This document shows, piece after piece, positions 22,625 through 56,264 of a stretch of DNA of 64,000 bases (position 1 is its first letter; every line of letters begins with the position of its first letter). Source of the DNA: a virus. Under the pieces are notes generated by a model, which did no database searches, was not told where the DNA came from, and worked only from the letters and a program-made list of their open reading frames with translations. The stretch lies in the IMG/VR virus record IMGVR_UViG_3300033153_008203, positions 81,070 to 145,069 of that record; one strand, 5' to 3'. Both the position numbers and the translations under genes were made by a program.

Positions 22625-23263
22625 TTATACTGGATCCCCTACGTTAGCAACAGGATTCTGTACAGTCCAAGGAGCTATACCACGGCACACATAAGTGTAC
22701 TGTTGTTCTGAGACTATGTCATCAATGCTGACTCCATATCCTTCGTTAAGGATTTCAACGCCATAGATTCTCATAACTGAAACTGCACCATATTCGTTAG
22801 CTGCACTTAATGTTACATCGAAAGGCAACATTTGATCTGTGTACCAAGGTTTATCAGCTGCTTTCTGTGCACCTGATGTAGGGACACCTATCAGTTCGCC
22901 TTCTTGTACGTTGGTAAGCTGGGTTATTCCAGCAAGAGTCGTTGCTCCACCAATGCTTGATCCTGTTGGCTCATTCAATGAAGAAAAACCTGGAGGTCTT
23001 GGGTCATTTTTCTCGGCTGCAAACTTGAACCCACCCATCTCGTCAAGCAATGCATTCCTATCAAACATTGTGAATATTAGTGATCCTGCTATGCCTCTTT
23101 TACCTCTAGAAAAAGCTCTTGGATCAGGTGAGCCCATCGTATAAATAGGGGCCTTTTCTCTTGTAACAGAGTAACTTATGCCTTGCAAGGCGCCAATTAC
23201 TTGGCTACCAAACACAGCAGTTATGTCTACTCCGCTAAAAGAGTTATATGCCTGTTCTGCCAT
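22625..23263 (-). CDS. major tail tube protein
   Basis: Directly downstream of the sheath, with strong SD AAGGAGG and a following terminator. Tube-type beta-strand pattern. Confidence 0.8.
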   Translation of the reverse strand: MAEQAYNSFSGVDITAVFGSQVIGALQGISYSVTREKAPIYTMGSPDPRAFSRGKRGIAGSLIFTMFDRNALLDEMGGFKFAAEKNDPRPPGFSSLNEPTGSSIGGATTLAGITQLTNVQEGELIGVPTSGAQKAADKPWYTDQMLPFDVTLSAANEYGAVSVMRIYGVEILNEGYGVSIDDIVSEQQYTYVCRGIAPWTVQNPVANVGDPV

Positions 23264-23281: not shown

Positions 23282-25210
23282 TTAGATTAATGCGCTAAGC
23301 GACAATACTATAGTGATTTGTCTTAACTCGAATGCAGGGACAAGCTTAAGTTCTATTGTTGCATCACCTTGTATCTGTTGTACAGGCGTAGATGTAACAG
23401 ACAAAACAAATCCTTGTATGTATCCTTCTCTCTGAAGTGACCCTAGTCCAGCATCAACTGCAGTTTCAAGCGCTGCCCTTCTCTGAGCTGTGTTTGCTTC
23501 TCCAACGAATGGATCGGCTACTGCTCTTACAACATCTATAGCATCTTTAACGATCCTCACTGTTGAAAGTCTAACGTAATCTGAACTCTGTCTTGCAGCA
23601 GTAGGAGCATCAGCAACAACGGTTCCCTTAGGTCTAAGAGCAAGCATTGTATACTTGGCGCCAGCAAGATTATCAAGCACAGTATTGTTTAAGCCATGTA
23701 TTGCCCTTACAGAAGGGATTACCTTGTTAGTAGGTGCTGACTTAGACTCAAGAGACATAATCAGACCAGCATAGCTAGGTGCTCCGTTTGTGACATATCC
23801 GTTAACATTTGTTGTCCACTGGTTGGCAAGCCTTCCATAACTTGGAACAACTGATATGTATTTACCGATATCAACAAGCTCGTTATTCTGATCAGAGATT
23901 TCTGAACCACCTAAGTTTCCAGAATCAGTAGCAATAAAACCACCTTGTGCATCTCCACTTCTGTAGCCTGCTGATCCAGCCATAAACTTGTTTCCAAGAA
24001 GGCCTGATCCATTGTCTCCAGCATCATTTATAAGTCTGCTTCCGTCATCTAGTACAGTATACGTTGGAAGTGATCCAACCCAAATTGCAATGTCTTTTGG
24101 ACTAAAGCTTGTTGGAGGAAGCATTCCTATTGTACCTATACATTCATTGTTATTTACTGACAAGTTGAAACAAAAGTTTGCCAACTGATAACCAAAATTG
24201 ACCTCAATAAAGCTGCTAGCAGTTAGAGTATCTCCAGCTGCATTGGTTGTTGCTGATGCACTAGCTACAGATGGATAAATATTACACCCAGCATCAGTAG
24301 TAAACACATCTCCAAGATCACCCTGAGGATTAGATGGCAACCACCAGTAGAAATAATTCTCTCCTTGGTACTCTTCGATGTAAACTCTTCCAAGAACGTC
24401 CTTCTCACCATTTGTTACAGGATAGTCTGAAAGCGCAGCAAGACCAAGATCAGTTACGTCATCTGATGTCAAATCAACTATGTTTGTATCATCGACATAT
24501 GCGTCCATAGGAATTACCATGTCGATTCTTTCGTTCTCAAGTGCCTTGTATGTATTATACAGATACTCGTAAAGCTTCATCCTTGATGGATCAGTACCGT
24601 CTGTTCCTGCTGTATATAGAGCTGTTATTCCAGAAAGAGCATCTACATCCTCAAGAGGAATTGCTCCTGTAGCAGAATCAGTACCTATTACTTCACCAAA
24701 AGTTCCGCCAAGAACAGAACCAGATACAATCACATCAAGTGTATCTATTTCGCTTCCAGACTCATTACTATATACTAAAAAGTCATCAGAAGCTCGCCAT
24801 ACTTTAAGTAGGCCGGCATCACCGTTCTCATTAAAATCAAAGTGAATGTTATATAGAGCTCCAGCAGTATTGTCTTTATCTGAAGTCTCTACGATATAGC
24901 CATAATCTCCAGTTGCTGCAAATGCTGTATTACCAACACCTTCAAGCTTAGCTGAAGTAGCTCCCATCCTATATATTCTTACATTTGTTGCACCGCCATC
25001 TTTGACCTCATACAGTCCTCTTACAAGAGTTCCGCTAAGTCCAAATTGCGCTACTGTGTCAGCAGTTCTTACTACTCTAGTTAGTTGGTCTCCGGCGCCT
25101 TGTGCTGATGTTCCCAATACAACTGTATTAGGTGCAGTTTCAGGCGTAAATATATCTAGACCACCATCGATTTTCTCACTGAAAACCCCAGGTAAATTTT
25201 CGAAAGCCAT
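23282..25210 (-). CDS. tail sheath protein
   Basis: N-terminal LPGVF. C-terminal YVRLSTVRIV...FVGEANT...LVPAFELRQITIVL typical of contractile sheaths. Confidence 0.9.
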   Translation of the reverse strand: MAFENLPGVFSEKIDGGLDIFTPETAPNTVVLGTSAQGAGDQLTRVVRTADTVAQFGLSGTLVRGLYEVKDGGATNVRIYRMGATSAKLEGVGNTAFAATGDYGYIVETSDKDNTAGALYNIHFDFNENGDAGLLKVWRASDDFLVYSNESGSEIDTLDVIVSGSVLGGTFGEVIGTDSATGAIPLEDVDALSGITALYTAGTDGTDPSRMKLYEYLYNTYKALENERIDMVIPMDAYVDDTNIVDLTSDDVTDLGLAALSDYPVTNGEKDVLGRVYIEEYQGENYFYWWLPSNPQGDLGDVFTTDAGCNIYPSVASASATTNAAGDTLTASSFIEVNFGYQLANFCFNLSVNNNECIGTIGMLPPTSFSPKDIAIWVGSLPTYTVLDDGSRLINDAGDNGSGLLGNKFMAGSAGYRSGDAQGGFIATDSGNLGGSEISDQNNELVDIGKYISVVPSYGRLANQWTTNVNGYVTNGAPSYAGLIMSLESKSAPTNKVIPSVRAIHGLNNTVLDNLAGAKYTMLALRPKGTVVADAPTAARQSSDYVRLSTVRIVKDAIDVVRAVADPFVGEANTAQRRAALETAVDAGLGSLQREGYIQGFVLSVTSTPVQQIQGDATIELKLVPAFELRQITIVLSLSALI

Positions 25211-28404: not shown

Positions 28405-29640
28405 TTAGAGAGTTATAGCAGTGTCTCTTGCAAGCTCACCGATGCTTCCACTTACAGAGATTTGGCTCTGAGCAGGAAGTACGATCTCATTAGGTACAAC
28501 CCTAATGTTCCTCATTACACCAATTGCCTGTCCTTCGTTAAGGATAGCCATGCCATACCTTTCACGAAGCTTGATCTTCCTGATATCAACAGAAGGATCA
28601 TTAAACTCTTCTGTAGTAATATCTTCGTCAACTACAAGCACACCAAGCTCGGTAGAATCAAACATCATAATGTTTGTAAGCTTGTTCTTTGGATCATAAT
28701 GAACGAATGGAGAAACAATTATCCTCATAGGTACATTGAAGTACGTAGGAAGAGTAGGTGCAGAGTTAATATTCTGCGGATACGCATTAAGCGGATCAGC
28801 TGATTCACCAGCAAGATTACCACCAGGCATAATGTTTTGGCCTGGGCTAACTCCAAGAGGATCAGTCCAGTTTGCTTTACCAGAAGGATTACCATTCCAA
28901 GTAGCGAAATAAGTACCGCCACCTGAAGCTAGAGCGAAAGCCCTAAGAGTAGGATCCTTGATAAACATTACCCACGTGAGTGGATGCATAAGCAGAGTGT
29001 TTGGGGTGAAACCTTGAGTTATGAGCTGGCCATAAGCATCAAAGATATCATCCATTGTGATAGAACCGTTTCCAGAACCATCAAGAGACCTACCTGATAC
29101 AGTACCGAAGATAGAGTCTGTAGGATTAAGGTTGTCGTGAGTTGTTACACCCATGCTGTTGATATAGTTAAATATCTTGACTTCCTTATGCCTTGCGAGA
29201 GCTCTACCGGCTTCCCTCAGATGCATACCAATTACGTCGAACTGGCTGTACCTGATCATTTCGTCAGTTACCTGAACTGCGAGACCGGACTTACCAACGG
29301 TAGCCGTTACAGTGGCTCCTTCCCTTGCTAACCCTCTGATTGGGTATTCTTGACCTTCTGCGATATCAGCTGCTACCATTCCGCCAACGGCAGGGAATGT
29401 GATCGTTTGACCATAAGAGTAGTTGACACGTTGAAGTAAAGAAGTACCTACCAAAAGAGGTTCAGCAGCTTCCTTAACGATATTGCTGATGACCTTAGGA
29501 AGCAGGGTAGCTGCGTTTGGAGTTGACAGAGCATCTGTCATACTTACAGTTTTACCTGCTTGATCTCCAAAAGCACAACCGTTATTCTTCCAGAGCCATT
29601 GGTAACCGCTCAGGTCTTCTATGTTGAACTTTTTTGCCAT
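28405..29640 (-). CDS. major capsid protein (HK97 fold)
   Basis: 411 aa with IAEGQEYP, KSGLAVQVTDEMI, PNTLLMHP and KLRERYG motifs. Follows the protease and decoration genes and has a strong SD. Confidence 0.9.
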   Translation of the reverse strand: MAKKFNIEDLSGYQWLWKNNGCAFGDQAGKTVSMTDALSTPNAATLLPKVISNIVKEAAEPLLVGTSLLQRVNYSYGQTITFPAVGGMVAADIAEGQEYPIRGLAREGATVTATVGKSGLAVQVTDEMIRYSQFDVIGMHLREAGRALARHKEVKIFNYINSMGVTTHDNLNPTDSIFGTVSGRSLDGSGNGSITMDDIFDAYGQLITQGFTPNTLLMHPLTWVMFIKDPTLRAFALASGGGTYFATWNGNPSGKANWTDPLGVSPGQNIMPGGNLAGESADPLNAYPQNINSAPTLPTYFNVPMRIIVSPFVHYDPKNKLTNIMMFDSTELGVLVVDEDITTEEFNDPSVDIRKIKLRERYGMAILNEGQAIGVMRNIRVVPNEIVLPAQSQISVSGSIGELARDTAITL

Positions 29641-49724: not shown

Positions 49725-49917
49725 CTTCCTTGTCTCCTTCTTTAAACTCTGCTTCTGGTAATGGACAATCTGATGATATTAAATCATTCATGACTGCAAA
49801 TGTTATATCTCTTAGATCTGTATCTTTAATCGACCTACACATATAGCTATTCTCGGTCAATTCATGTTGTCTTACATATGGACATACGGAACACTTAACT
49901 ATTGGTATATATCTCAT
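49714..49917 (-). CDS. small Cys-rich protein
   Basis: CSVCP...C...CPL, the same pattern as the N-terminus of 48431-48994. Confidence 0.6.
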   Translation of the reverse strand: MRYIPIVKCSVCPYVRQHELTENSYMCRSIKDTDLRDITFAVMNDLISSDCPLPEAEFKEGDKEDAE

Positions 49918-50369
49918 TAAACCTCTACTCCTATTGTATAAAATTCCATTTCTTTTTCAGTTAACGGTTCAGATTCAATCGCTCCAACAGGACCTTTTCC
50001 AAAATCTTTCATATATGGGCTTCCTGTTGCTCTGAACTTCCATATTCCATCTTTATTGGTTACAAAAGTATTTTGAACCTTAACTCCTTCTGGTTCCATC
50101 ATTAGAAAGACATCTCCTTTTTTCAAGTCCATGAAATCTACTTCTGTCATATATATTCTTGGAGGATTTGGTACGCCTTCCATTACGTACACAGGTGCTG
50201 GATTACGGTTTAATTTATATGTAGTTCTACGTTGCTGACTATCGTCTATTGTACTGTCTTTACAATCGCTACACAATTCGTATACTACTGTTTTATCTTT
50301 AGACATACATCTACACTGTGAGATTACAGTATTACAATTAGAACAACGAGTTATTTGATGGCTATGCAT
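49917..50369 (-). CDS. hypothetical protein with N-terminal Zn finger
   Basis: H...CSNC...CRC...CSDC. Confidence 0.6.
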   Translation of the reverse strand: MHSHQITRCSNCNTVISQCRCMSKDKTVVYELCSDCKDSTIDDSQQRRTTYKLNRNPAPVYVMEGVPNPPRIYMTEVDFMDLKKGDVFLMMEPEGVKVQNTFVTNKDGIWKFRATGSPYMKDFGKGPVGAIESEPLTEKEMEFYTIGVEV

Positions 50370-51329: not shown

Positions 51330-51356
51330 CTAATTCCTCTCTAATTGTATTACTCT

Positions 51357-51398: not shown

Positions 51399-51818
51399 CT
51401 ATTTCCAATTATAAGTTTCTGAATTACCAAGGTGAACATTTACCCTAGCAGAAAGTACAGCAGAGCCCAAACAGCGTCTTACAGGCTCTTTCATCTCATG
51501 AACGTTACATACTATACATATACTCTCAAACGTCCTCATATGGAAGTCCTCGGGCTCTGAGAGCAGACTTATGGAGGAGTTTGTATTTCTATATATTAAG
51601 AATGTCCCATTCTGAGTTCCAATATAATCTGGAGCACTAAGACTCATAGGACGTGGCTCTGTTTCTAAGTAATGTATGACTTTATCGTATACAGTTCTTT
51701 TCTCACTAGGTAGACAAACAATTCCCACATTTTGATACTCATTAGGTGGAGCACATGATATAACCGCCTTATTCATCATTCTCGTAAATCTGTAATCTCT
51801 ATTCGGTATCTTAACCAC
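51399..51818 (-). CDS. degenerate terminase ATPase-like fragment lacking Walker A/B
   Basis: NVGIVCLPSEKRTVYDKVIHYL aligns by eye to TerL DILVVCPQKSHAQVIYDRLIELI, and NSSISLLS to NGSIIKLFT. Confidence 0.5.
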   Translation of the reverse strand: MVKIPNRDYRFTRMMNKAVISCAPPNEYQNVGIVCLPSEKRTVYDKVIHYLETEPRPMSLSAPDYIGTQNGTFLIYRNTNSSISLLSEPEDFHMRTFESICIVCNVHEMKEPVRRCLGSAVLSARVNVHLGNSETYNWK

Positions 51819-52015
51819 TATTTGACCTCATTATCAAAGATACTACACTTATAAGCACATGTATTTACTGCTGATATTATGCCGGAGCAAATATGCTCTT
51901 CCTCACAAAAAAGATAAGCATCTGAAAACACTTTCCCACTTATATCAGCATCAACACCAACGACTGATATCGAACTACCATTCTTATTCTCTACGCTTAA
52001 CCATAACCAGTACAC
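51818..52015 (-). CDS. hypothetical protein
   Basis: 65-aa ORF in the operon. Confidence 0.4.
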   Translation of the reverse strand: MYWLWLSVENKNGSSISVVGVDADISGKVFSDAYLFCEEEHICSGIISAVNTCAYKCSIFDNEVK

Positions 52016-52191
52016 TCGTGCTGAACATCTGCATCTCTTAAAGCTTCTATAATATGGTCATATGTTGTAGTCCTATCAAGAAAATAAGTAACAACCACAA
52101 TCTTTCTAACACAAGGCCAAGTGAAGTCATGTAGTATCTTCCTTAGCATTCTCTTTGCTCTATACTTTTGATTTGGTATACCGTTCTTCAT
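51997..52191 (-). CDS. hypothetical protein
   Basis: 64-aa ORF, TAATG-coupled to the mini-tube gene. Confidence 0.5.
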   Translation of the reverse strand: MKNGIPNQKYRAKRMLRKILHDFTWPCVRKIVVVTYFLDRTTTYDHIIEALRDADVQHECTGYG

Positions 52192-52550
52192 TATATAACC
52201 TTACAAGCAATACACTCGCATTCCTTAGAAGGATTGTGCCACCACGTAACACATTGTAGGTCAAACGCGTTTACTTCGCCGGGGATTATTTCTTCTCTCG
52301 CTGTAATACCATGAATAGACATTATCTTCTCATTACCATATTCATCAGAACAAGATAATATAAGATCGGATTTAAAATTAAGATCCATAGCACTAATATA
52401 TTCCTCTTCGTCTAACACAGCTATACTAGCTGTTTGACCTTCAACAGATATCGCCCTGATCTTGCCTATCTTAACGTCGCTCTGGTAAACATCCATATTT
52501 ACCCCACTGAAACCATTGAAACTAAATTCATCTGCTGTATTACTCTTCAT
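52191..52550 (-). CDS. miniature paralogue of the tail tube protein (internal hairpin deleted)
   Basis: Gap-free blocks FNGFSGVNM...IGKIRAIS vs YNSFSGVDI...IGALQGIS, and DLILSCSDEYGNEKIMSIHGI vs DVTLSAANEYGAVSVMRIYGV. SD AAGGAG. Confidence 0.8.
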   Translation of the reverse strand: MKSNTADEFSFNGFSGVNMDVYQSDVKIGKIRAISVEGQTASIAVLDEEEYISAMDLNFKSDLILSCSDEYGNEKIMSIHGITAREEIIPGEVNAFDLQCVTWWHNPSKECECIACKVI

Positions 52551-52577
52551 TTCTTTCTCCTTTAGTTTGATTATCTT

Positions 52578-52606
52578 AGTATAGCGACTTTATCTAGTTT
52601 TGTCAA
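52578..52606 (-). promoter_or_regulatory. near-consensus sigma70 promoter
   Basis: TTGACA-N17-TATACT directly upstream of 52550. Confidence 0.85.
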
Positions 52607-52609
52607 GTT

Positions 52610-53053
52610 GTTTCTATTAGTTGTTAATTTTAGGCAATACTACGCCAAGAGGCTATCGTGATAAACTAGGAAGCGAGTGATTAAACCCAATTCCATTTAC
52701 TTAGCCTCTAATAGATAAAATATATACTAACAGTTGTAAGAAAGAAAATATTTACTCGGATGTAGATTTTTTTTGCAAGTGTCCCACCACTTTCTAGTAT
52801 CACGATGAAGCATCCTCATATCTATCTTGACTACTGCTCTAGTCTAACAGGGGTCGCTCTTCCACGGCATGGCTAGTGTTGTTCCGTTTCGAGGAGATGT
52901 TAATTCAACTCCTAAACCCTATTCTCCTTCTCTTGTAACAAGTTATCACTTCTTTCATATAGCTATAATCAATAACTTAAGTAAGTCATCGATCTGTATT
53001 ACTGATAAGCCCAATGTAGGAGAAACTGTTTAAAACTACATTACTTTAATCAT
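52610..53053 (-). ncRNA. candidate ~450-nt structured non-coding RNA
   Basis: Lies downstream of a consensus promoter. The longest ATG-ORF I found is about 30 codons, with no good SD. Several hairpins, e.g. AGAGGCTA/TAGCCTCT and GACTA/TAGTC. Confidence 0.35.
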
Positions 53054-53059
53054 TACTCT

Positions 53060-53088
53060 ATTATAGCGGGGGATTTTGTTTTTGTCAA
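53060..53088 (-). promoter_or_regulatory. consensus sigma70 promoter
   Basis: TTGACA-N17-TATAAT. Shares CCCCGCTATAATAGAGTAA with the promoter at 51357. Confidence 0.9.
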
Positions 53089-53746
53089 GCTTTTTCTTGT
53101 TTTTTCATAAAGAAATATAACTTTTCAATATCTTCAAAAGATCCATTATTCTTCATTTGATTGGCTTTACAAGAAATAACCTGAACATTTTTAGGAACGT
53201 AGCCAATTGAGTTGTCTATTCTGTCTAAGGTTGGACTATTATCTCTAGGGCCCGAAACACCAGTCCTACTTGAAAAAATTTTAATCCCTAGTATCGGGCA
53301 TACGTCTGGAATGATAACATGCTCTTCTAATATTGAGAATTCAAGCCCATTGGTCTTGGCTCTATGCTTTGCGCCTTTAAGCATTTTATAGGCCCTGTTT
53401 TTTCTCTGTGCTTTAAAGATAGAGACTCGTAATGCTCAAGATCTTTTTCTCTATGCTTTTTTGCTAAAGCGTTTGAGCATTCTTTGCATTTAGTTTGCTT
53501 CCCATGTTTTCCTCTTTTTAGCTTTGCGAATAAATCGAGTGTTTTAGTTTTTTTGCAACCTGTGCATTTCTTATGGGTAGGTATTTGTTCTTTTGGTTTA
53601 TTTTTCTTCTTTTTCTTACGATATTGCTTTTGATACTCTTCAAGACATTTTTTACATGTGTATTGAAGCTTGTCTTTACTGTTGCTATTAAAACTGAATC
53701 CGCTTATGTCTTTGTCTTGTTTGCATATATTACAATGTTTAGTCAT
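53085..53746 (-). pseudogene. Zn-finger/HNH-type homing endonuclease split by a -1 frameshift
   Basis: CxxC repeats in 53327-53746 and nuclease PTLDRIDNSIGYVPKNVQVISCKANQMKN in 53085-53384. One extra A in the run at 53398-53403 fuses them (HREKNRAYKMLKGAKHRAK). Confidence 0.75.
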
Positions 53747-54021: not shown

Positions 54022-54317
54022 TCATAAACCGTATGGATCAACATCTGTTGCTGTAAATTTGTAAGTTGCACCTTCATCATTAAACATGTCCACTTGTATT
54101 TTGCATCCTGTTATGATTCTTTTCCTGATACAATGCACGTGTTTTTATCAAGTGCAATTTTATTACCATCACAACGCTTATATGGAACTAAAAAAGAACC
54201 TGAAATTTCTTTTGTGATTTTCGTAGGTGATGTAGTTAGTGATACTGTCTTTTTTACATTCATTTTAAAGTCGTCTATGTCAACTGATAATGGTCCGTTT
54301 GCTACAAATGATTTCAT
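54022..54317 (-). CDS. mini tube-like protein, frameshifted at an A4 run
   Basis: Paralogue of 54317-54577 (GP..DI.D, ISGSFLV). Adding one A at 54120-54123 restores GKRIITGCKI...YKFTATDV, matching the paralogue C-terminus. Confidence 0.6.
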
Positions 54318-54577
54318 TATGACTCCTTTTCTAATCCTTGTGCTATAAATTCAAACTCTGTGCCATATAACTTGATGTCTCTCGAAGTAATACGACATTC
54401 TGTGATAAGCCATCTATTTCCATGTACACAATCTATAATTGTGAATTCACTTGCCATATTCAAGTCTTTAGCATAGATTTTTACTAAAAATGATCCCGCG
54501 ATTAATGCATCGTCTGTTACGGTTGTTTCTAAGTCTTCTATGTCTAGCGCATCGGGGCCTTTTACTAAGATTGTCAT
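54317..54577 (-). CDS. mini tube-like protein
   Basis: Start moved to 54577 (SD GAGGAG, downstream of the promoter). IAGSFLV...ITECRI...FEFIAQ resembles tube strands IAGSLIF and YTFIARD. Confidence 0.55.
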   Translation of the reverse strand: MTILVKGPDALDIEDLETTVTDDALIAGSFLVKIYAKDLNMASEFTIIDCVHGNRWLITECRITSRDIKLYGTEFEFIAQGLEKES

Positions 54578-54602
54578 ACTATACTCCTCTAAGCGTATGT
54601 AT

Positions 54603-54631
54603 ATTATAACAAGTGTTCGCCGATTTGTCAA
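54603..54631 (-). promoter_or_regulatory. consensus sigma70 promoter with extended -10
   Basis: TTGACA-N17-TATAAT with TG at -15/-14. Confidence 0.9.
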
Positions 54632-54638
54632 GGGAAAT

Positions 54639-55037
54639 CTAGTGTTTAGTCCTCTTTCTTCCACCTTTATCCATGGCTTTTGTTACTGAGTCTACTAGGC
54701 CATTAGAACAGAATGGTTTCTCGATGTAATCACATACTCCTCTTGCCAGTAAGCAAGTCTTACTCGCTGTTCCTGTCGCTGTAAGCACAACTATTGGTAT
54801 ATCGTTTATTGCATTCATTAATGCAGTCTTTTTTACAAAAGTGCAACCATCCATTCCTGGCATTTTAAGATCAAGAAGTATTGCGTCTAAATTCTCATTA
54901 TGTGCAATCTCTATTGCTTCTTCTGCAGTATTTGTAGTGAGGACATTAAATCCTTTAGTCTCAAATAAGAATTTAAGCATTGCTAGTATTTGATCATCAT
55001 CGTCAACTATTAACAGTGTGCTGTCTTCTTCAATCAT
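54639..55037 (-). CDS. stand-alone CheY-like response regulator receiver domain
   Basis: LLIVDDD, ILLDLKMPGMDG (phospho-acceptor Asp), VVLTA and YIEKPF. Start moved to 55037 (SD AGGAG). Confidence 0.92.
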   Translation of the reverse strand: MIEEDSTLLIVDDDDQILAMLKFLFETKGFNVLTTNTAEEAIEIAHNENLDAILLDLKMPGMDGCTFVKKTALMNAINDIPIVVLTATGTASKTCLLARGVCDYIEKPFCSNGLVDSVTKAMDKGGRKRTKH

Positions 55038-55146
55038 CTGTATTCTCCTGGTTTGAATTGTACTCATAAGCAAGGTGCAAGTCATAGATGTAGAGCGATA
55101 TTTAATATAAAAAGATTATTGGAAGATAATGCTAAACTATGTACGA

Positions 55147-56264
55147 TTAACCAGGTATGAAGGTATTCCCTTTGTGTTCGTTTTTAGTTGCCGTGATTAT
55201 CTGCAAGTTGTTTTCAACGTGTAATCCGCAAACCAATGGATGATGCATTGGTACGATATGATCGACATGAAAAGATACGTACCCAGCCTCTTTGTTTAGC
55301 CTACGCATCTCTCTGTAGATGAGTCTTATTGCTGTTGTGTCTCCCCCCAAGCTACTTTTGCTTCTTTGTGTCTACGTTTAATGCTTACTTTGTTCTCTTT
55401 TTTTCATGCTCTATGACGCTTTCTATAGTCGTCTTTGTTGTCTTGGTAGTGTTGAGATCGTTTCTTTCTTGTGCAATCTGTGCAGTAGTAGCTTAGGTGA
55501 TCTGGAGACTGATAGTTTATATAAAACTCTTTAAAGGTTTTTTCTGTGTTGCAGTGCTTGCACAGTTTTGTTTTATCAGTAAGGATTAGCGTGTCATATA
55601 GTGTTCTTATGGCTGGTTTATCGATTTTCAATGTATGTCGTTTTCTTTCTTCTTGAGTTGATACTGCTTTACATGAAGAACAATATTTGTTTCTGCCTTT
55701 ATTCAAGACTATATTGGTGCATTCTTTGTTTTTACATTGCCTGGTTGTAGGCACTAATAGCCTATCTGTATTTGTTTTGTATTTTTTTCTTGTTCTTCTC
55801 TTTTCTCTAACTATATCTGAACAATCAAAACACCAATATTGTTTTCCTCTATCTGTGTCTTTTAGTAATGAAAAGTGTCTTTTGGCTTTCATTTGTTTGC
55901 AAGAGTAACATTTTATTTTAGGTCTACGTTTTATGTCTGGGTTTAGCACGCCTTTTCTGTGTCTTATCGCTGCGTTGACGCAGTCCCGACATCTGCTATG
56001 AAATCCAGACTGCTCATGCTTAACAATCTCAAACAACTCTATTGGCTTTTCTATTTTACATTTAGTGCATACTTTAGATATTAAATCTACTGAATCATAG
56101 GTTAAATCTTTATTTTTTTTCTTATATTCCTCTCTTTTTTGTTTTGCATATTTAACGTTACACTCTTTGCACCACCATTCGCGTCCAGTCTTATTTTTTT
56201 CTGAACGCTTTCTGTTACCAAATTCTAATTTACCTTTATTAATCTTGCATCTTGGGCACACCAT
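55147..56264 (-). pseudogene. Zn-finger-repeat HNH endonuclease disrupted by TGA and a frameshift
   Basis: Multiple CxxC repeats (55404-56264), in-frame TGA at 55404-55406, G6 run at 55343-55348, then HVDHIVPM....VCGLHVENNLQII....N..K.N. Confidence 0.75.

Follow-up and report, generated by a model that had tools for sequence, protein, structure and literature searches.

An inter-ring hairpin is known from the structures of tail tubes, Hcp, and pyocins. Tube-fold proteins without the long hairpin reportedly act as terminators, connectors, and hub domains of tailed phages, and, to our knowledge, reuse of the tube fold is confined to virion assembly modules. Tail tube proteins are now known as triggers of bacterial immunity through DSR2 and Avs16. 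In the present study, we examined a 119-aa protein (hereafter, the mini protein) encoded by a phage known from a metagenome. We found that its gene is a real gene and that the product is a fourth, abridged member of the tail tube family of the source phage. It is very likely an old, selectively maintained duplicate of the major tail tube protein, which was cut to a minimal beta-sandwich core of the tube/Hcp type.

The tubes of the 0305phi8-36-like jumbo myoviruses (phrog_9206) share with the mini protein homology in two to three collinear blocks, the motifs, and a predicted beta-sandwich core. The mini protein differs from them in lacking a 28-aa segment (tube residues 31-58) and a 68-aa insert, in having half the size and a Cys tail, and in its gene, which stands apart from the tail module under a host-type promoter of its own and is restricted to a small sub-lineage. 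The lambda gpU-type terminators, connectors, and hub domains resemble the predicted mini protein in having the tube/Hcp fold without the long stacking hairpin. However, they are late, virion-borne, and encoded in the morphogenetic module, whereas the mini gene lies outside that module, and no sequence match of the mini protein to any terminator or connector family was found in Pfam. Hcp gave the best structure matches of the mini model (Hcp5, Z 7.7; Hcp1, Z 7.6; 91-101 residues aligned) and has a similar small size, but the identity is only 5-12%, with neither a T6SS context nor a Pfam Hcp match, so that the likeness is at the fold level only. Satellite proteins that bind the assembly proteins of a helper phage and the eukaryotic microProteins may share only the proposed logic, in which a small protein competes for the site of a full-length structural protein or of the sensor of that protein. 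The DSAD1-type inhibitors of the tube sensor DSR2 may likewise be compared in logic only, as DSAD1 has not been described as tube-derived.

The window, i.e. the whole 64-kb stretch of DNA analyzed here, is the final part of a 145-kb IMG/VR virus record with a completeness rated at about 75%. Between 56.3 kb and 18 bp, the minus strand carries almost every gene. The mini gene is sited in an accessory arm of small genes, including a receiver-domain gene, pieces of an HNH-type endonuclease, MazG, and ThyX. In reading order, this arm is followed by the terminase, portal, major capsid protein, sheath, and three tube paralogues, and then by two small genes and three giant proteins. The mini gene shares the strand of the structural genes and precedes them in reading order, outside the module between the sheath and the chaperone/tape-measure genes. 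An earlier sequence-only reading had proposed a 119-aa ORF with its own TTGACA-N17-TATACT promoter, 29 kb from the tail genes; the ORF and the promoter are present, the latter conserved in the close clade of relatives, and the distance is right (Table 1). The mini protein is strongly acidic (net charge -11; 20 D/E versus 9 K/R), as is common among phage inhibitor proteins, and its C-terminal tail from C100 to C116 is rich in Cys and His.

Table 1. Mini gene, its expression signals, and structural genes (window coordinates)
Feature	Position	Strand	Basis
Mini tube-family protein, 119 aa	52191..52550	-	ORF, six homologues, profile homology to the tube family
Shine-Dalgarno AAGGAG of the mini gene	52557..52562	-	6 nt before ATG; conserved in relatives L019 and L002
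Sigma70-type promoter TTGACA-N17-TATACT (putative) of the mini gene	52578..52606	-	Sequence scan
Capsid gene proper	28405-29640		
Tail sheath gene, anchors the tail module	23282..25210	-	phrog_16991 tail sheath, E 8e-74; weak Phage_sheath_1C match
Tail tube family protein, 212 aa, closest mini paralogue	22625..23263	-	Adjoins the sheath gene; tube-fold matches weak but consistent
Second tube paralogue, 241 aa	21828..22553	-	phrog_9206; 34% identity to the 212-aa protein, E 4e-28; mini HMM, E 1.2e-4
Third tube paralogue, 249 aa	21079..21828	-	phrog_9206, E 4.7e-12; mini HMM, E 6.8e-3

In the protein collection, 4848 relatives of the 212-aa tube protein were found, many encoded on contigs of about 190 kb. 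Relatives from cultured phages include those of Bacillus phages 0305phi8-36, WH1, Edson, and KLEB27-3, Moorella phage MTATph1, and Acinetobacter phage ME3. In KLEB27-3, the same three genes after the sheath are annotated as tail tube proteins. For the 212-aa protein, the predicted structure is mediocre (pLDDT 61), and the structure matches are weak, headed by tube and Hcp chains. For this family, phrog_9206 and the RefSeq records of 0305phi8-36, ME3, and MTATph1 carry the label 'major head protein'. This is most likely a mislabel, because of the position after the sheath, the tube-like fold matches, and the KLEB27-3 annotation.

Six relatives of the mini protein were found, one of them added by the IMG/VR search; three are close (67-79% identity) and three are distant (30-36%). 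The family of seven sequences, all from metagenomic phages, stands against 4848 tubes. Scans of genome contigs and metagenome contigs gave no further relatives, tblastn against 50,697 phage records gave chance matches only, and a search of the ESM Atlas gave no usable lead. The gene is missing from the cultured Bacillus phages WH1 and KLEB27-3, which have the same tail module; of the thousands of phages with the same tube family, nearly all lack it.

In BLASTP against the 212-aa tube protein, the matches are short and weak but collinear: block 3 has an E-value of 8e-5 and block 1 of 0.006. The sequence-only reading had aligned the two proteins in three gap-free blocks. Blocks 1 and 3 were recovered, whereas block 2 alone is not significant and fits by position only; the C-terminal strands, as far as the WW/W motif, can be aligned too. 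Over about 54 aligned residues, the identity to the phage's own tube is only about 25-35%.

The profile comparisons gave a clearer result. When six mini-family sequences were aligned with 38 tube sequences by hhalign, the global alignment had a probability of 96.5-96.9% (E 1.6e-10 to 8e-10). Two collinear local blocks (mini 10-35 with tube 5-30, and mini 60-87 with tube 147-174) each had a probability of 93-94% with an E-value of about 1e-7. Among the 161 ORFs of at least 60 aa in the window, the mini-family HMM matched only the three tube paralogues of the tail module (E 2.4e-8, 1.2e-4, and 6.8e-3), the next ORF being at 0.36. Conversely, the tube HMM matched the mini ORF at 3e-6 in the same ORF set, on a par with the third tube paralogue. 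The mini ORF scored 20.2 bits with the tube HMM, a score reached by none of 2000 shuffles (best, 7.0). In both the source phage and WH1, the paralogue nearest to the mini protein is the one that directly follows the sheath. In block 3, the distant minis look more tube-like: one reads F-D-I-V-C-T-A-A-N-E-H-G, and the tube consensus is F-D-V-T-L-A-A-A-N-E-Y-G.

The mini protein had no match in Pfam and none below E 0.05 in PHROG, and HMMER against a library of 1.84 billion proteins did not find the link to the tubes at E 0.001 or below. In the latter search, four giant repetitive proteins matched at E 1e-7 to 7e-4. They were taken as composition or repeat artefacts, because the matches consist of multiple short stretches and these proteins contain many unrelated Pfam fragments. 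Although the pairwise BLASTP alone is thin, the relatives, the profile-profile alignment, and the window-wide control make the homology solid, and the proposed derivation from the tube family holds in both profile directions.

In the alignment, ISV-EG-Q of the mini protein is opposite ISY, 28 residues, and GS of the tube. The sequence-only reading had described this deletion correctly, with EG in the place of the 28-aa segment. However, the account was incomplete, since the mini protein has also lost an insert at tube 78-145, of about 68 aa; the 212-aa tube has both, and the 241-aa paralogue likewise lacks the insert. Among 38 tubes, 18 of the 28 positions of segment 31-58 are invariant and three more are nearly so, against a mean column identity of 54% over the alignment, which makes it the best-conserved stretch of the whole tube family. 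In its place, six minis have two residues and one has 13; in one distant mini, the loop at the deletion site is 11 aa longer. From knowledge of the tube fold and from the low-confidence, extended region at residues 32-63 of the tube model, we infer that this segment is probably the inter-ring stacking hairpin. In the mini model, a tight turn links the strands at 26-37 and 40-44.

The mini protein has kept the two best-conserved motifs outside the putative hairpin, S-x-N-x-F-S-G-x-D/N near the N terminus and D-x3-(A/S)-x-(N/D)-E-Y-G-x4-M-x-I-x-G. The polar tube invariants N12, G16, E70, M77, and G81 are present in all seven minis. At the C terminus, the added Cys tail that had been pointed out was found in the mini protein and its close clade. 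The consensus is Q-C-x2-W-W-H-x(1-2)-P-S-K-E-C-x-C-x2-C; its His and its four Cys are invariant in four sequences. In contrast, the distant minis stop after W-W-E, without this tail. The C-x10-C-x-C-x2-C tail of the one clade may possibly bind a metal.

The model of the mini protein, built from only four sequences, is modest (pLDDT 61, pTM 0.54). In an exhaustive comparison with 48,161 solved chains, ranks 1 to 12 were all Hcp, R-pyocin tube, or phage tube/tail chains. A PVC tube chain was at rank 16, and most of the top 20 were Hcp, pyocin, PVC, or phage tube chains. The chains at ranks 1 to 12 and 16 align 89-101 residues with an rmsd of about 3-3.5 Å at Z 6.4-7.7. With the other tube-like chains of the top 20 included, 88-101 of the 119 residues align at Z 5.7-7.7, all middling values, as the search tool warns that a Z below 8 may reflect a common arrangement. 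Neck, terminator, and baseplate chains were also among the matches (neck and terminator at Z of about 5-6), as were split beta-barrel folds (PilZ and PNPOx-like) at about 5. A Foldseek search of BFVD gave nothing at E 0.001 or below; its weak list is dominated by tube proteins and topped by an unnamed 106-aa viral protein. The structural check that had been suggested thus gave tube and Hcp chains as the best matches, but with middling Z and without significant BFVD matches. We take the fold search as consistent support for, not proof of, a tube/Hcp fold.

All seven copies of the gene have an open frame, with mutual identity down to 30%. The dN/dS ratios (Nei-Gojobori) were 0.21 for the window and L019, 0.31 for the window and L002, 0.33 for L019 and L002, and 0.19 for L016 and L018, the more distant pairs being saturated. 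Neutral decay, for which ratios near 1 and stops had been named as the signs, was not seen. The mini protein evolves faster than the tube: between the source phage and a 188-kb ZHAN contig, the identities are 67-69% and 84-86%, respectively. In all relatives, the gene is 2-4 kb downstream of the CheY-like receiver gene. On all available evidence, the mini gene is functional.

In the distant clade, the mini gene overlaps its upstream neighbor, and a gene for a 136-142-aa protein with a Tat-type signal is directly downstream. The orthologue of the latter in the window (49917-50369, minus strand) is now 2.2 kb further on from the mini gene. This protein of 142-150 aa, which has the Tat-type signal in the relatives, is 79% identical between the window and L018 (3318-3746), and the adjoining mini only 34%; the L018 record does not include the tail region and hence no cognate tube.

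The 64 kb contain just four sites with the sequence TTGACA-N17-TATA[AC]T. All four lie on the minus strand in the interval of 51.3-54.7 kb, and the structural genes of the window have none. The mini promoter belongs to a 50-nt cassette (repeat family D1) that is present three times, at 51349, 52570, and 53052. L019 and L002 have the same two hexamers, spaced by 17 and 16 nt, respectively; the distant minis have no promoter of their own. The restriction to the arm and the retention of the hexamers argue for real promoters of the host RNA polymerase and for expression apart from the tail operon. We infer that expression would be early, as had been suggested from the promoter.

What the mini protein does can be stated only tentatively. 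Our preferred reading, which we hold as a possibility rather than an expectation, is that it would be a soluble look-alike of the tube, with the monomer surfaces of a tube subunit but unable to extend a tube, and that it would fill a site where a tube monomer should bind. The target may be a host sensor of free tube protein, for which it would be a decoy or blocker, or the tube or ring that a competing tailocin or related phage is assembling, for which it would be a dominant-negative cap; both had been raised in the sequence-only reading. We rank this mimicry first because the positions kept in both mini clades are polar invariants of tubes, which suggests that a surface or interface was retained and not only the core. 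With an identity as low as that given above, shared surfaces are not proven. Furthermore, some tube proteins of only about 118 aa do polymerize, such as the phage Mu chain among the structure matches; thus, small size alone is no sign of an inability to polymerize.

DSR2 senses only the monomeric tube, via its core domain (PMC10981675), which fits mimicry; a permanently monomeric mimic could occupy DSR2 or could just as well trigger it. Avs16 has been reported to contact the tube hairpin (PMC12803255); a protein without the hairpin therefore cannot be a decoy for a sensor of this kind. Against the decoy, a receptor that senses the core could be triggered, not blocked, by a monomeric tube-like protein made early; against the cap, a protein acting on the tubes of relatives risks poisoning the phage's own tube. 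The strongest form of the idea is a natural phage 'microprotein': a version of the tube subunit that has no hairpin, is expressed from a host-type promoter, and would blind host receptors of free tube or cap the tubes of rival relatives or tailocins. We consider this form unlikely. If true, it would be the first described structural-protein mimic in phage conflict; in the literature, we found no paper on a truncated tube paralogue outside the tail module, nor on a structural-protein mimic as a decoy.

Exaptation is nearly as likely as mimicry and, by itself, also doubtful. The tube-fold core would have been reused for a job unrelated to the tube, for example binding to a nucleic acid or host protein in the form of a small ring or adaptor. 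The putatively metal-binding Cys tail of the close clade would then be the new working part, and the shared motifs would be determinants of the fold only. This would accord with a rare and fast-evolving family, with a Cys/His tail that is invariant in four sequences and absent from the distant clade, as if the working end could change, and with the PilZ and PNPOx-like matches. Another ectopic tube paralogue, gp277 of Bacillus phage vB_BceM_WH1, also favors it, as it indicates that tube-derived domains are reused outside tail modules in this phage lineage. Conversely, the polar tube invariants kept in both mini clades go beyond the usual maintenance of a fold, and neither Pfam nor PHROG revealed a motif of known families of nucleic-acid-binding proteins or enzymes. 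WH1 gp277 (L015 3764-4285) is a 173-aa hypothetical protein encoded among thioredoxin, SSB, and RecA genes. It matches positions 14-60 of the tube profile, hairpin included, at E 4e-13, and the rest, its C-terminal half, is unrelated.

We think it improbable that the mini protein is an ordinary part of the virion or of its assembly, i.e. a non-stacking ring of the tube fold (terminator, adaptor, or initiator) or a helper of tube assembly that happens to be encoded outside the tail module. The hairpin-less terminators, connectors, and hub domains of tailed phages are precedents, and the neck, terminator, and baseplate matches, as well as the position upstream of the structural genes on their strand, would agree with such a part. 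However, the gene sits among small accessory genes at a distance of 29 kb from the tail genes, and its host-type promoter cassette is absent from the structural region. Its absence from WH1, KLEB27-3, and nearly all other phages with the same tube family indicates that it is not a core tail part. A functionless, decaying remnant of a tube gene duplication, suggested by the truncation relative to the parent and by the rarity of the family, is highly improbable in view of the intact frames of copies as little as 30% identical, the conserved start, ribosome-binding site, promoter, and synteny, and the dN/dS of 0.19-0.33, by which we rejected a pseudogene.

A hairpin-less tube copy in an accessory arm would extend the reuse of the tube fold to a non-structural role. 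If it is a plain accessory protein, it is still a clean case of the duplication, reduction, and relocation of a core structural gene. As a small, easily expressed protein, the mini protein can also be used to ask which surfaces of the tube monomer are read by sensors and whether ring formation is separable from stacking.

Two other ORFs of the arm were considered as mimics and rejected at the sensitivity used. The 115-aa ORF at 54317-54664 had a probability of 0.1-0.3% against the tube and mini profiles and no match in the window-wide HMM scan; the 139-aa ORF at 51399-51818, considered as a terminase mimic, matched the terminase at E 3.7.

The ORF-less stretch upstream of the mini gene (52551-52886, minus strand) reaches back to a perfect TTGACA-N17-TATAAT at 53088-53060. 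It is 90-92% identical among the window, L019, and L002, compared with 75-82% for the mini coding sequence. There was no Rfam match, the folding z-score was only -1.3, and two compensatory pairs were seen. The stretch may represent a structured RNA, a long mini-gene leader, or a segment that lies beside a homing endonuclease and was recently exchanged.

On the other side, the ATG of a 64-aa ORF (51997-52191, minus strand) overlaps the stop codon of the mini gene (TAATG). Together with a 65-aa ORF (51818-52015, minus strand), it matches one 127-aa gene in L019 (722-1105), which in the window is split by a frameshift or sequencing error. At 53085-53746 (minus strand), two overlapping ORFs in different frames encode 139 aa with CxxC zinc-ribbon repeats and 99 aa with an HNH/EndoVII-like domain; they look like one split free-standing homing endonuclease, and a similar, intact 286-aa gene is at 55404-56264. 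A stand-alone CheY-like receiver gene (54639-55085, minus strand; Response_reg, E 2e-22) opens the arm after the strand switch, as it does in every related phage found (e.g. L016 2670-3062 and L017 2085-2420).
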